Shown here: positions 52,204 to 55,400 of the stretch, one piece after another | How positions within the stretch are numbered: position 1 is the first letter of the stretch | How the letters are laid out: the number at the start of each line of letters is the position of its first letter | Sequence record: OP688485 | DNA length: 64,000 nt | Source: Escherichia phage EP_H11 | Reading direction: 5' to 3' (one strand) | Position numbers and translations under genes: made by a program | The notes under the pieces: generated by a model | Database searches by the model: none | Seen by the model: only the letters and a program-made list of their open reading frames with translations | Told to the model about the DNA's origin: nothing

Positions 52204-53013
52204 ATGTACTTTACTGATAATATGATCGTGGGACTGATGATTGCTTATATCATCGGTGGGATCATTGTTTATCCGATTGCTGCCTACGTAACTGGCAGAT
52301 TTCGCATTAAGCATGGCGGTTACACAGTATTGGCTACGGTATTTTGGCCGTTAATTCCTTTCGTGGTCGTGGCAGTTATCATAACTAAACTGGTTGAAAT
52401 AGCGTGCACGAAAGGGACTACCTCCGCGATCTCGGTGAGAAACATGCCAATTAATTTCAGCATGCAGAGTCTTGAAGACTTTGTACCGGAGCATGGTAAG
52501 AACGTAGTAGTCTTCTATCACGAACGATTCTATTCACGAGTAGAGATGCTCCAAATGCAGGTAGAATTCCACTACCAGATGATAGATGGAGATGGTTGCC
52601 CAGTTCCTCAGTGGGCATGCTATGATAATCGCGACGACATACCGTTCGATAAGCCATTCATCTGGAAAGATAAGCAGGTTAAGTTCCTTACTCTGGATGA
52701 CTGTATGGAAATACATAATCTTCATCCCAAGCATCATTACCGCTACTGGTGGGTTAAGGACTGGTTCCTAACTGGTGGAGGAAATAGCCAGTTAAATAGG
52801 GAACAGCTGGCGGAGATGTCGTTAGGGATTATGAGTGCCGAACAGTTTAGTGCTGAACTGGATAAAGGATGTGCTGATCTGGAAGCTAAACGTATCTTGC
52901 GTGAATTAACTCGTGAATCCAGCACTGGATACTGCGAGAAGCATGCTACTCGCCAGTTGGGTAAAGACCTATGCGATGTATGTCGTATTGAACGTGCATT
53001 TATGGAGGGATGA
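52204..53013 (+). CDS. hypothetical membrane protein
   Basis: Two N-terminal transmembrane segments and a Cys-rich C-terminus. Confidence 0.5.
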   Translation: MYFTDNMIVGLMIAYIIGGIIVYPIAAYVTGRFRIKHGGYTVLATVFWPLIPFVVVAVIITKLVEIACTKGTTSAISVRNMPINFSMQSLEDFVPEHGKNVVVFYHERFYSRVEMLQMQVEFHYQMIDGDGCPVPQWACYDNRDDIPFDKPFIWKDKQVKFLTLDDCMEIHNLHPKHHYRYWWVKDWFLTGGGNSQLNREQLAEMSLGIMSAEQFSAELDKGCADLEAKRILRELTRESSTGYCEKHATRQLGKDLCDVCRIERAFMEG

Positions 53014-53669
53014 TGCGAATCTGGACCGAGGAGAACTCTATTCTGGAGTTTAGTGGAGAGTACCGATTCCTCTCTAACTTTTATCCTATTCCTATCGAGG
53101 ATAAGAATCCATATGGGAACGAGACTCTTCCTTCCCTTACTTACCCCAGTCTGGAGCATGCCTATCAAGCATCTAAGTCTCCATCACTAGCTCATCGTCT
53201 TATAATAGCTAGACTCCATACTCCTGGGGAGGCTAAGAGATACGGACGTAAGCTATCCATTACCGAATCGTGGAAGGAACAGCGAGTAGATGTAATGGAA
53301 CACCTACTCCGGATTAAATTCGCGAAAGGTGGGGAGCTAGCTCAAAAATTGATCGATACTTGGCCTAAGGAACTGGTCGAAGGAAATACCCACGGAGACT
53401 CTTTCTGGGGTATGACTCGTGAGGAATACAAGTCCGTCCTTACGGGTATTAACATGCTTGGACGACTATTGATGAAACTTCGGGAGGAGTTAATTATGGA
53501 ACAAATGACTAAGAAGACAGGATCGTTTGAGGAGTGGCATAAATTGCTGCACCAATACGCTCAGTCTCGTGGTGGTAGCGCTGCGGACGCCGAGGCTTGG
53601 CGGGATGATTACGATGAAGGTAAGACTCCTAAGCAGGCCTACGACGATGAGTGGGGCGAAGAAGACTAA
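53010..53669 (+). CDS. NADAR (YbiA/DUF1768) domain protein
   Basis: FLSNFYP, EHAYQASK and LVEGNTHGDSFWG...LGRLLMKLREEL match the YbiA/NADAR family. Confidence 0.7.
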   Translation: MMRIWTEENSILEFSGEYRFLSNFYPIPIEDKNPYGNETLPSLTYPSLEHAYQASKSPSLAHRLIIARLHTPGEAKRYGRKLSITESWKEQRVDVMEHLLRIKFAKGGELAQKLIDTWPKELVEGNTHGDSFWGMTREEYKSVLTGINMLGRLLMKLREELIMEQMTKKTGSFEEWHKLLHQYAQSRGGSAADAEAWRDDYDEGKTPKQAYDDEWGEED

Positions 53670-53676
53670 CCTATCT

Positions 53677-53708
53677 TAGCGCTCTTTAGGGAGCGCTATT
53701 TTTATTTA
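53677..53708 (+). terminator. intrinsic terminator
   Basis: tagcgctc-tttagg-gagcgcta followed by tttttattt; the stem-loop resembles the 5' half of the class A motif. Confidence 0.6.
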
Positions 53709-53723
53709 ACGTTGGGAGTAATT

Positions 53724-53963
53724 ATGGATCAGCCTATCCAAACAGTAATTAACGCAGTTGGGAGCATGCAGATCGTGGGTTATGATACCTATGAGCAAGT
53801 AGCTCAAACAGTTAAACTTGATCCTCGCAAGAAGCGTCGTGGTCATCGTCAGGCAGCTAAGAGTTTGCTGCGTAATGGTGGGCTCTTCAATAACTACTCC
53901 TCACCAGGAACTACATTCTGGTGGGTTGCACAATGGCATCTTAAGAAGGCACGTAATGGTTGA
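53724..53963 (+). CDS. hypothetical protein
   Basis: Trimmed to the ATG at 53724 behind GGGAG. Confidence 0.4.
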   Translation: MDQPIQTVINAVGSMQIVGYDTYEQVAQTVKLDPRKKRRGHRQAAKSLLRNGGLFNNYSSPGTTFWWVAQWHLKKARNG

Positions 53964-54309
53964 AGATACTGGAATTCATGACGGACGCTGGGAAGAGCGA
54001 TATAACTCCGTACGGCAGGAGCTCGACACTACTAAGGCTAATCTGAGTAAGGCAAGAGTAGAGAATGCCGAAAACCGAGCTATGCATCACCGTATTATTC
54101 AGATGGCTATTGATGATGGCTGGACGGGTGATCATAATAGTAATGTTGAGGATGCAGTAAAATTCCTCTCTGGTAGAGAGCGTAAAGTAACTGCTCCTAA
54201 AGTACATTATACAGATCATATCACCGTAGGTAAGCCTTCCCCAGTGTATGATGCTGTTGAAGTAGATACATTATTAACCAGCCTAGGATACATTGTGGAT
54301 AAGGATTAA
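53956..54309 (+). CDS. hypothetical protein
   Basis: Trimmed to the ATG at 53956, overlapping the upstream stop. Confidence 0.45.
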   Translation: MVEDTGIHDGRWEERYNSVRQELDTTKANLSKARVENAENRAMHHRIIQMAIDDGWTGDHNSNVEDAVKFLSGRERKVTAPKVHYTDHITVGKPSPVYDAVEVDTLLTSLGYIVDKD

Positions 54310-54311
54310 TT

Positions 54312-54346
54312 CCGCCGTTTCTTACCCTCGAAAGGCTGTTAAATTG
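54312..54346 (+). promoter_or_regulatory. class A motif A15
   Basis: ccgccgtttcttaccctcgaaaggctgttaaattg. Confidence 0.5.
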
Positions 54347-54373
54347 TTGCACCTCAACTAATAAGGATAACCG

Positions 54374-55087
54374 ATGTCTACTAAGATGATGCCACACCAT
54401 CTGGCACCGAATAAACTGTTTAACCGATTCCTGTCATATCATGACTCCTATCACTGCGCAATCGACATCGAGACTGAGTATCTCGATTTTAAAGAGCCTG
54501 GGGTAGTTCTGTCTGTAGGTATGGTAACGATCGGTCCAGAGCATTACTCCCACGTTTATTTTACTATTGATCGTGAAGAATCTCTGGCATTGGGTATGAA
54601 GTCCGACCCTAAAGTAGTGGAGTGGCTCAATACCCTCCCGAAACCCGTCCGTGATGCCGCATATGCTAATCCGGTATCTGTTGACGAAGCTCTGGATATC
54701 ATCGAGGATTACGTAGCTAAGGTATTACAGGACACTGGCTGCGAGATGTTGAACTTTATCGGTAACGCACCGGAGTTCGACCAAGGATTCCTGGATTGGT
54801 ACTTTAAGGCCAAAGGGCGTAAGACTCCGTTCCTTCACTGGATGAATCGTGACTTCCGCACTCTGGCTAGTCTGCAGCTAATCTCTTTCGATGAACGCCG
54901 CATGATTAAAGAAGAACTGCGTAGCCAGCACGAATCTATGTCTGACCACCATGCTCTGTTTGATGCTATGCTGGAAGCTAAGACCTGGGTTCGCACCATC
55001 AACCGAGTAAAAGAACTGCAGGATCTGGAGCATGAAGTAAACACCATGATCGCTCTGCAGGGTAATTCTGTTGAGGATGAAGAGTAA
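54374..55087 (+). CDS. DEDDh-type 3'-5' exonuclease (DnaQ-like)
   Basis: Exo I motif CAIDIETEY and Exo III motif HHALFDA. Confidence 0.6.
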   Translation: MSTKMMPHHLAPNKLFNRFLSYHDSYHCAIDIETEYLDFKEPGVVLSVGMVTIGPEHYSHVYFTIDREESLALGMKSDPKVVEWLNTLPKPVRDAAYANPVSVDEALDIIEDYVAKVLQDTGCEMLNFIGNAPEFDQGFLDWYFKAKGRKTPFLHWMNRDFRTLASLQLISFDERRMIKEELRSQHESMSDHHALFDAMLEAKTWVRTINRVKELQDLEHEVNTMIALQGNSVEDEE

Positions 55088-55400
55088 GCTCTGCCGCGTA
55101 GTTAATATACGTACCAATCCTAATTATGATCTGTATGTTGGGAGAGGTACGTTATTCGGGAATAAGTGGAGCCATAAAGATTTACCTAACGCTATCAATG
55201 TAGGTTCCCGAACATTAGCTATCGCGAAATACCGACTATGGTTCCACCAGCAAGTAAAAGATGGCCATATAAGCATCTCATACCTGCGGACTCTGAAGGG
55301 TAAGACTCTGGGATGCTCCTGCTTACCATTACCATGTCATGCTCAAGTAATAGCTGACTTCGTTAATTCATTACCAGACGAAGACTCCGCTCTTTCGTAG
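55077..55400 (+). CDS. hypothetical protein (DUF4326-like, CxC...CH motif)
   Basis: YVGRG...FGNKW and LGCSCLPLPCH motif; family recalled from memory only. Confidence 0.35.
   Translation: MKSKLCRVVNIRTNPNYDLYVGRGTLFGNKWSHKDLPNAINVGSRTLAIAKYRLWFHQQVKDGHISISYLRTLKGKTLGCSCLPLPCHAQVIADFVNSLPDEDSALS

Follow-up and report, generated by a model that had tools for sequence, protein, structure and literature searches.

Do the genes for a NADAR protein, a DEDDh exonuclease and a Cys/His protein that lie close together in Escherichia phage EP_H11 act as one counter-defence module, or are they separate parts of a longer gene run? We examined this question in a stretch of 64,000 nucleotides of phage DNA (sequence record OP688485), the whole of which is referred to below as the window. 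An earlier sequence-only reading had joined the three genes into a module directed against DarTG or another defence linked to nicotinamide adenine dinucleotide (NAD). Our analysis favours, at a probability of about 0.6, a different description, in which early/middle genes of an E. coli phage of the EP_H11/IME392 type, accessory ones and ones for nucleotide metabolism, follow one another in the same orientation and form three expression units, not one module. What stood of the proposal is the anti-DarT idea for the NADAR protein alone, as a predicted activity on guanine modified by a toxin of the DarT1 type. The module found no support, because a terminator-like hairpin, two small genes and a separate motif intervene, and because relatives of the exonuclease are encoded near dCTP deaminase without NADAR or DUF4326, the family to which the Cys/His protein belongs.

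Comparisons were made with Escherichia phage vB_EcoM_IME392 (IME392; L001), the sole close relative in the phage collection, which shares 92% nucleotide identity over the region studied, and with two metagenomic contigs of the same lineage, L002 and L004. L002 is a more distant member, and its contig ends at the start of the dUTPase gene. The L004 contig cuts the exonuclease gene at its end, and nothing upstream is readable there.

The division into units was drawn from a repeated sequence, the class A motif, and from hairpins. The motif had been picked out in the sequence-only reading, and it proved to be real: AAAGGCTGTTAAAyTGTTG occurs in 13 copies within 3 mismatches, all on the + strand, where 0.01 would be expected by chance. 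A looser search recovered 17 copies of an extended form, CCGCTCTTT-N~10-AAAGGCTGTTAA, spanning positions 3033-55417 (for example at 18879, 38067, 51616, 54331 and 55406), and CGCTCTTT-N10-AAAGGCTGTTAA was present at 17/17 of the class A copies. All of them are intergenic, lie on the + strand and have a start codon 15-60 nucleotides (nt) downstream; topoisomerase, DNA polymerase and ligase genes are among those preceded in this way. Sigma-70-like promoters were not enriched (14 found, 11.9 expected). The class A motif probably serves the phage's own RNA polymerase as a promoter, and the GC(N)CTTT upstream part could pair with AAAGGC. At 32906-32960 the motif core can pair with a perfect inverted copy of itself (GGCTGTTAAC ... 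GTTAACAGCC) ahead of TTTTTATTT, giving a terminator-like hairpin made from a promoter-like motif.

The features of the region are as follows. The IME392 comparisons give the ratio of nonsynonymous to synonymous substitution rates (dN/dS), ORF stands for open reading frame and pI for isoelectric point.

51616..51627, + strand: class A motif core, AAAGGCTGTTAA; no other copy lies closer to the NADAR gene on its upstream side.
52204..53013, + strand: 269-residue protein, no family, hydrophobic at the N-terminus and rich in Cys at the C-terminus; the stop codon of this gene overlaps the NADAR start (ATGA).
53010..53669, + strand: NADAR protein of 219 residues (Pfam PF08719); the domain covers about residues 7-166 and is followed by an in-frame acidic module of 57 residues.
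53496..53669, + strand: the 57-residue acidic module inside the NADAR ORF (phrog_519, pI 4.5, ending in DDEWGEED), with its own Shine-Dalgarno sequence GGGAGGAG and ATG.
53677..53708, + strand: hairpin resembling an intrinsic terminator, with a 9-bp stem containing 5 G-C pairs, then TTTTTATTT; 8 nt past the NADAR stop codon.
53724..53963, + strand: basic protein of 79 residues (pI 10.5), no family; dN/dS 0.18 against IME392.
53956..54309, + strand: protein of 117 residues, no family; dN/dS 0.12 against IME392; variable slot.
54331..54349, + strand: exact copy of the class A motif; the exonuclease start codon follows 25 nt downstream.
54374..55087, + strand: DEDDh 3'-5' exonuclease of 237 residues, Rv2179c-like/RNase T-like (Pfam PF16473, catalytic residues present).
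55077..55400, + strand: DUF4326 protein (the Cys/His protein) of 107 residues, homologue of T4 NrdA.1 (Pfam PF14216); 11-nt overlap with the exonuclease gene.
55406..55424, + strand: exact copy of the class A motif, 15 nt before the next gene (55439), at the head of a block that encodes a 74-residue protein, a RyR-domain protein and dUTPase.
55663-56043: RyR-domain protein of 126 residues (Pfam, E 5.8e-13); 4-nt overlap with the dUTPase gene immediately downstream.
56540: terminator-like hairpin after the dUTPase gene; a dCTP-deaminase-like gene lies further downstream.

The class A motif at 51616 is the likely start, on this layout, of a unit covering 51656..53669. This first unit would run from the motif to the terminator-like hairpin at 53677-53708, which is G+C-rich and identical in IME392, and would have as its last gene an orphan, antitoxin-like NADAR of the AdfN kind. 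The second unit would consist of two small lineage-specific genes that fill a variable slot. The third would hold the translationally coupled exonuclease and NrdA.1-like DUF4326 genes between two copies of the motif and lead into the dUTPase and dCTP-deaminase genes. Both the exonuclease and the Cys/His gene had been said to stand behind a class A motif of their own. This was so for the exonuclease (54331-54349), and the motif precedes the exonuclease gene in L002 as well; the Cys/His gene, however, lacks one: its first 11 nt are shared with the end of the exonuclease gene, and the next motif (55406-55424) comes only after it. The overlap suggests translational coupling of DUF4326 to the exonuclease gene. 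The pair is located between the motifs at 54331 and 55406, and it likewise lies between motifs in L002. We found no single transcription unit for NADAR, exonuclease and DUF4326 in the sequence; the hairpin and the two separate motifs place the NADAR gene and the exonuclease-DUF4326 pair in different predicted expression units.

The product of the gene at 53010 had been taken for a NADAR protein from its motifs, and profile search supported this (Pfam PF08719, E 7.4e-27, 95 bits against a cut-off of 35.1); it also matched phrog_1017 at 8e-39. Alignment to the Phytophthora NADAR (PnNADAR) and to E. coli YbiA revealed the NADAR signature, namely the catalytic Glu/Lys pair (E-x6-K), the phosphate-binding Lys and Arg, a conserved Glu and D-x-x-W-G, and the conserved residues kept in the window protein are E49, K56, K76, R80, E124, D130, W133 and G134. 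E49/K56 align to E43/K50 of PnNADAR and to E36/K43 of AdfN from T4 (AdfN-T4), where the latter are essential, while K76/R80 align to the phosphate-binding K75/R79 of PnNADAR. Among solved structures searched with phmmer, YbiA was the best match (2B3W, E 5e-14) and PnNADAR also matched (8BAU, E 3e-11). The nearest phage relatives outside the lineage were a Ruegeria phage NADAR (49% identity) and the NADARs of many T5-like phages (~44%). The NADAR of phage Bas32 (bas32_0066) is 44% identical to that of the window across the whole domain (E 1e-31); it is a Pfam NADAR at 8e-22 and the sole NADAR found in the 50-100 kb part of Bas32.

The NADAR gene showed a dN/dS of 0.07 against IME392. Between the window and L002 the NADAR proteins are 55% identical and the exonuclease and DUF4326 proteins 78-80%, and this faster divergence of NADAR than of its neighbours fits an arms-race gene. 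No ADP-ribosyltransferase or DarT domain was found in the neighbouring genes between 51.6 and 57.4 kb with Pfam, PHROGs, PADLOC or NCBIfam. The window NADAR is thus an orphan hydrolase, and with no DarT gene beside it in this interval it is not part of a DarTG toxin-antitoxin pair. Two marginal PADLOC matches were obtained, NADAR to PDC-M42C at 3e-5 and the exonuclease to 'Effector exonuclease' at 4e-5.

Orphan NADARs carried by phages (AdfN) are an experimentally established counter-defence against DarTG1, published in 2024 (PMC11257639). The Bas32 NADAR studied by Johannesman et al. increased the replication of three DarTG1-sensitive phages by several logs, did not rescue from DarTG2, and neutralised DarT1 also in the absence of phage (PMC11257639). 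Single NADARs suffice for protection, and all phage NADARs tested to date are guanine-specific DNA glycohydrolases (PMC11257639). Guanine-ADP-ribose was hydrolysed in vitro by all four NADAR subtypes tested (PMC11125620). The statement in the sequence-only reading that NADARs reverse DNA ADP-ribosylation of the DarT type is correct for guanine-ADP-ribose made by DarT1, but not for thymine-ADP-ribose made by DarT2 (PMC11543638, PMC11125620). Since the window protein has 44% identity to the Bas32 NADAR and keeps all catalytic and ADP-ribose-binding residues, anti-DarTG1 activity is the best reading of it. From the domain identity, residues, gene layout and conservation pattern observed here, we infer its substrate and its role in vivo: it is most likely a guanine-ADP-ribose DNA glycohydrolase with an anti-DarTG1 role. 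Upon infection of a DarTG1 host, DarT1 would put ADP-ribose on N2 of guanine in single-stranded phage DNA and replication would stall. The NADAR would then hydrolyse the N-glycosidic bond of guanine-ADP-ribose, so that ADP-ribose is released and the template restored. The counter-defence function of phage NADARs is already published, and the window NADAR adds a member.

Several points weigh against this assignment or against the division into units. YbiA and T4 gp30.3 hydrolyse guanine-ADP-ribose in vitro yet gave no cell protection from DarT1 in one study (PMC11125620), and an identity of 44% does not fix substrate specificity. The structure of a DarT1-associated NADAR, 8BAT, was not retrieved by phmmer. 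The Asp of DarT1-linked NADARs (D171 in E. coli C7) is without counterpart in the window protein, where Leu is found, likewise in Bas32. On TIGR02464, the 'riboflavin intermediates N-glycosidase' model, the window NADAR obtained 73.6 bits, with the cut-off at 73.7. As to the units, the motif is a promoter and the hairpin a terminator by prediction from sequence only. The TIGR02464 score was considered as an argument against a DNA role and rejected, since the validated Bas32 NADAR obtains 66.3 on the same model; with such similar scores, the 'riboflavin' label does not discriminate.

The same observations bear on whether the window NADAR leaves DarT1-modified DNA alone and acts elsewhere, either on small molecules as an N-glycosidase like YbiA (riboflavin intermediates or soluble immune signals derived from ADP-ribose) or in the reversal of another nucleic-acid ADP-ribosylation, for example of cytidine or RNA. 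A TIGR02464 score at threshold would fit such a substrate, as would a sequence nearer to YbiA than to the DarT1-linked NADARs, which gave no match, and NADARs are reported to reverse cytidine ADP-ribosylation as well (PMC12945103). We nevertheless regard this explanation as unlikely, because the Bas32 NADAR, the nearest tested relative, has a like profile (66 bits) and yet counters DarTG1 in vivo, because every phage NADAR tested so far is guanine-specific on DNA, and because no riboflavin pathway is present in the window.

Comparison with the closest known systems places the protein, predicted to counter DarTG1, more precisely. The NADAR of Bas32 (IrisVonRoten) resembles it in being a phage orphan with the same conserved residues, in an E. 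coli host, encoded in an early/middle region near nucleotide-metabolism genes. The two differ in that only the window ORF carries an in-frame module of 57 acidic residues, and the phages differ as well: the Bas32 lineage is unrelated to the window phage, and its DNA is not known to be modified, whereas the window phage is predicted to be T-hypermodified. AdfN-T4 (gp30.3) shares with the window NADAR the superfamily, the Glu-Lys spacing (E36/K43 against E49/K56) and the proposed role, but it belongs to a different NADAR clade, from which Bas32-type NADARs are placed apart (PMC11257639), and it works best on hydroxymethylated T-even DNA. DarG1, the NADAR antitoxin of DarT1-NADAR systems (8BAT; PMC11543638), belongs to the same fold family and hydrolyses guanine-N2-ADP-ribose, as predicted for the window protein; unlike DarG1, the latter has no adjacent DarT1 toxin, no N-terminal extension and no clade-specific catalytic Asp. 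E. coli YbiA is, like the window protein, a single-domain NADAR and was the best solved-structure match by sequence, but its gene is chromosomal and lies in a LexA-controlled operon, and YbiA is assigned to cleavage of riboflavin intermediates and did not protect against DarT1 in vivo.

The C-terminal part of the NADAR ORF corresponds to a separate gene in other phages. Residues 157-219 match another phage family, phrog_519, a module that 196 phage records, among them Vi01-like, Klebsiella and Stx2a phages, carry as a small gene on its own. IME392 has a TAA in place of NADAR Lys156 (window 53475-53500; IME392 6374-6397), and there the module is a separate ORF of 57 residues with its own GGGAGGAG site and ATG. 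Both the internal GGGAGGAG site and the ATG are intact in the window, where NADAR and module form a single in-frame ORF, and the L002 NADAR is without the acidic module. The stop in IME392 deletes ~10 final residues of the terminal NADAR helix, which is intact in the window copy; RB69 has a truncated AdfN that is inactive, and by analogy the NADAR of IME392 may have lost its activity too. As a speculation, fusion of the module to an enzyme of the DNA-repair type could target the latter to a partner.

The DnaQ-like exonuclease (54374-55087) named in the sequence-only reading was identified by its domain, PF16473 (Rv2179c-like 3'-5' exoribonuclease; E 4.9e-19, 69 bits against a cut-off of 27). 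In an alignment to RNase T all five DEDDh residues are present (D31, E33, D136, H192 and D197). Pfam domain and catalytic residues are thus common to the window protein and the Rv2179c-like/RNase T group of DEDDh exonucleases, but it is at most 31% identical to any other phage exonuclease in the collection searched. Its dN/dS against IME392 was 0.035. An IMG/VR scan for exonuclease relatives found none, a word-indexed protein search gave only 3 matches for the exonuclease (and 2 for DUF4326), and the distant relatives were those of L003 (37% identity) and Acinetobacter phage Ab1-TPeters (31%). In both, the exonuclease gene lies beside an actin-like partition gene and near dCTP deaminase, with no NADAR or DUF4326 there. 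The occurrence of the exonuclease without these two in distant relatives indicates an old core gene of the wider group, which NADAR and DUF4326 joined later. Within the lineage the exonuclease is a core nuclease, and its place is with the nucleotide-metabolism block. In L003 (1-363) and in L008 (4063-5004) the exonuclease is directly 3' of an actin-like (Alp7A/ParM-type) 'partition protein' gene, and in L003 a DUF7217 gene is directly 3' of the exonuclease gene.

The protein with the CxC...CH motif (55077-55400) was assigned by profile search to DUF4326 (PF14216; E 3.1e-17, 63 bits against a cut-off of 25). Its motif reads C80-x-C82-x-P84-x-x-C87-H88, in which P84 is nearly invariant, and the five residues that are invariant in 104 diverse DUF4326 representatives (N29, C80, C82, C87 and H88) are all present. 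The protein is 40% identical to T4 NrdA.1 (E 2e-23), with which it has in common its length, an overlap with a neighbouring gene and the invariant N, CxC and CH residues. They differ in setting: T4 nrdA.1 lies between td and nrdA, overlapping nrdA within the frd-td-nrdA-nrdB cluster and far from adfN, whereas the window DUF4326 gene follows a DEDDh exonuclease gene. In Klebsiella phage Miro the DUF4326 homologue overlaps nrdB. The family is widespread, with matches in 2,013 phage records by tblastn and 2,549 representative protein clusters in an exhaustive profile-free search.

Iyer et al. (2022) placed DUF4326 in the rhodanese-phosphatase superfamily and predicted that it processes ribose-linked phosphates of ADP-ribose (PMC9503650). 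An AlphaFold2 model built on the 104-sequence alignment was confident, with a predicted local distance difference test score (pLDDT) of 95.5, but had no convincing relative among solved structures. Foldseek with this model returned no solved structure below E 4, which speaks neither for nor against the rhodanese-phosphatase placement. Profile-profile comparison of DUF4326 with NADAR was negative (probability 0.3%). Among 36 longer, multidomain homologues, the partners of DUF4326 were SLOG-type domains (8), NADAR (2), Macro (2) and DNA methylase (2), and the exonuclease was not among them. The Aravind group had reported the same domain associations (PMC7824862, PMC9503650), and our fusion counts reproduce them independently. 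DUF4326 is an enzyme-like domain with wider associations with ADP-ribose-processing domains and with nucleotide metabolism.

We then collected 120 DUF4326 loci from IMG/VR by means of a degenerate DNA pattern for GKxLGCxCxPxxCH. NADAR adjoined or lay near DUF4326 in 3 of the 120 (L030, L121 and L031), and an exonuclease of the present type was near in 2. The immediate upstream neighbours of DUF4326 in 91 viral loci contained no recurrent family. Linkage of the three genes beyond the immediate lineage was therefore not observed, given also that the exonuclease of L003 and Ab1-TPeters stands without NADAR or DUF4326. Of the neighbours in the window, only DUF4326 has an independent link to NADAR, visible in fusions and rare adjacency, and as a functional tie it is a published prediction (PMC9503650).

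These data bear directly on the module as first proposed, in which the three proteins would act together against DNA ADP-ribosylation or another NAD-linked defence, NADAR removing the adduct, DUF4326 processing the ADP-ribose or phosphoribosyl remnant and the exonuclease trimming damaged ends. All three genes fit into 2.4 kb, and their synteny holds across the window, IME392 and L002. The fusions of DUF4326 to NADAR, Macro and SLOG domains, the adjacency of NADAR in three unrelated IMG/VR loci and the role predicted by Iyer et al. would also fit. Yet a terminator, two unrelated genes and a separate motif stand between NADAR and the pair; the exonuclease dispenses with NADAR and DUF4326 in distant relatives and is neither a fusion partner nor a recurrent upstream neighbour of DUF4326; and an adjacency of 3/120 is about the chance level for NADAR-rich large myoviruses, by our own estimate from a prevalence of 27% (PMC9503650). 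T4 nrdA.1 is moreover far from adfN, and single NADARs are sufficient. We consider a single module of this kind highly improbable. Just as doubtful is a version in which DUF4326 serves as second-step enzyme of nucleic-acid or ADP-ribose de-modification beside NADAR, Macro or SLOG and here forms a coupled complex with the exonuclease, giving a two-stage counter-defence where NADAR would remove the adduct and the pair would clear products or residual lesions.

More credence, though still well short of an even chance, can be given to the idea that the exonuclease-DUF4326 pair is a unit for nucleotide supply, unconnected with ADP-ribose. The exonuclease would degrade host or damaged nucleic acid to mononucleotides, and DUF4326 would serve a deoxynucleotide-synthesis complex as in T4 nrdA.1. 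The pair heads a block that encodes the RyR-domain protein, dUTPase and dCTP deaminase, and the exonuclease accompanies dCTP deaminase in distant relatives. The overlaps of T4 nrdA.1 with nrdA, within frd-td-nrdA-nrdB, and of the Miro homologue with nrdB point the same way. Against it, the domains to which DUF4326 is fused (SLOG, NADAR, Macro and DNA methylases) point to ADP-ribose or DNA-modification chemistry and away from dNTP synthesis, and no nucleotide-metabolism family recurred upstream of DUF4326 in the 91 viral loci. Across viruses, DUF4326 does keep company with domains that process ADP-ribose, for reasons yet to be explained, but in the window its predicted coupling is to the exonuclease, not to NADAR.

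The arrangement in three units is consistent with what is conserved in the lineage. The L002 block comprises the exonuclease (78% identical), DUF4326, a 75-residue protein, the RyR-domain protein and the start of dUTPase, with class A motifs in matching places. L004 has the same gene order from the exonuclease onward, through dUTPase to dCTP deaminase, and the RyR-domain/dUTPase arrangement is kept in both contigs. The 269-residue protein encoded at 52204 has a homologue upstream of NADAR in L002 (73% identity). The two small genes that had been noted between NADAR and exonuclease, 53724-53963 (79 residues) and 53956-54309 (117 residues), are indeed there. Their products matched no family in Pfam, PHROGs, PADLOC or NCBIfam, but their low dN/dS values against IME392 (0.18 and 0.12), indicative of purifying selection, mark them as real genes. 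The 79-residue gene follows NADAR in IME392 and also in L002 (63% identity).

Between the 79-residue homologue and the exonuclease, L002 carries three other genes, one of them a Lar-type restriction-alleviation gene (Lar_restr_allev; 3846-4076). Since its content differs from that of the window, this is a variable accessory slot, and the Lar-type gene suggests that the slot collects anti-defence cargo. The final 35 residues of the 117-residue protein (54210-54309; HYTDHITVGKPSPVYDA...) share 71% identity with the C-terminal end of a different L002 protein (1903-2007), the homologue of window gene 52204. This shared C-terminus is a case of module shuffling between small accessory genes.

All large ORFs of the window lie on the + strand up to ~59.4 kb, and the minus-strand ORFs in the region are short and nested within + strand genes. 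An Rfam scan of 51000-57500 gave nothing above noise. The window also codes for a family A DNA polymerase, an NAD-dependent DNA ligase, topoisomerase II subunits, glycosyltransferase-like proteins and fragments of the beta' subunit of a multisubunit RNA polymerase. The beta' (Rpb1) domains are distributed over two ORFs, 26582-28096 (domains 3-5) and 29676-31244 (domains 1-2). This is a split, multisubunit phage RNA polymerase, with domains 3-5 preceding 1-2, in a genome of only ~111 kb. EP_H11 and IME392 are predicted to be hypermodified-thymidine phages (PMC12686479; bioRxiv 10.1101/2025.03.26.645540). A block at 41609-44382 encodes DUF7217, an MptE-like protein and a glycosyltransferase-like protein, and may be part of the predicted thymidine hypermodification pathway. 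A full-length BCCT betaine/carnitine/choline transporter (8174-9556; Pfam E 1.6e-91) is encoded amid phage replication genes, and is an unusual auxiliary gene for a phage.

If the predicted activity is confirmed, another independent phage lineage would join the AdfN-type family of anti-DarTG1 proteins. With its multisubunit RNA polymerase and the hypermodified thymidine predicted for it, this lineage would help to test whether NADAR specificity tracks the DNA modification of the phage, as proposed for T4 AdfN. The residual interest of the finding lies in DUF4326/NrdA.1, which is very common among phages and giant viruses and turns up repeatedly in fusions with domains that process ADP-ribose, and for which the window phage offers a compact genetic context for testing.

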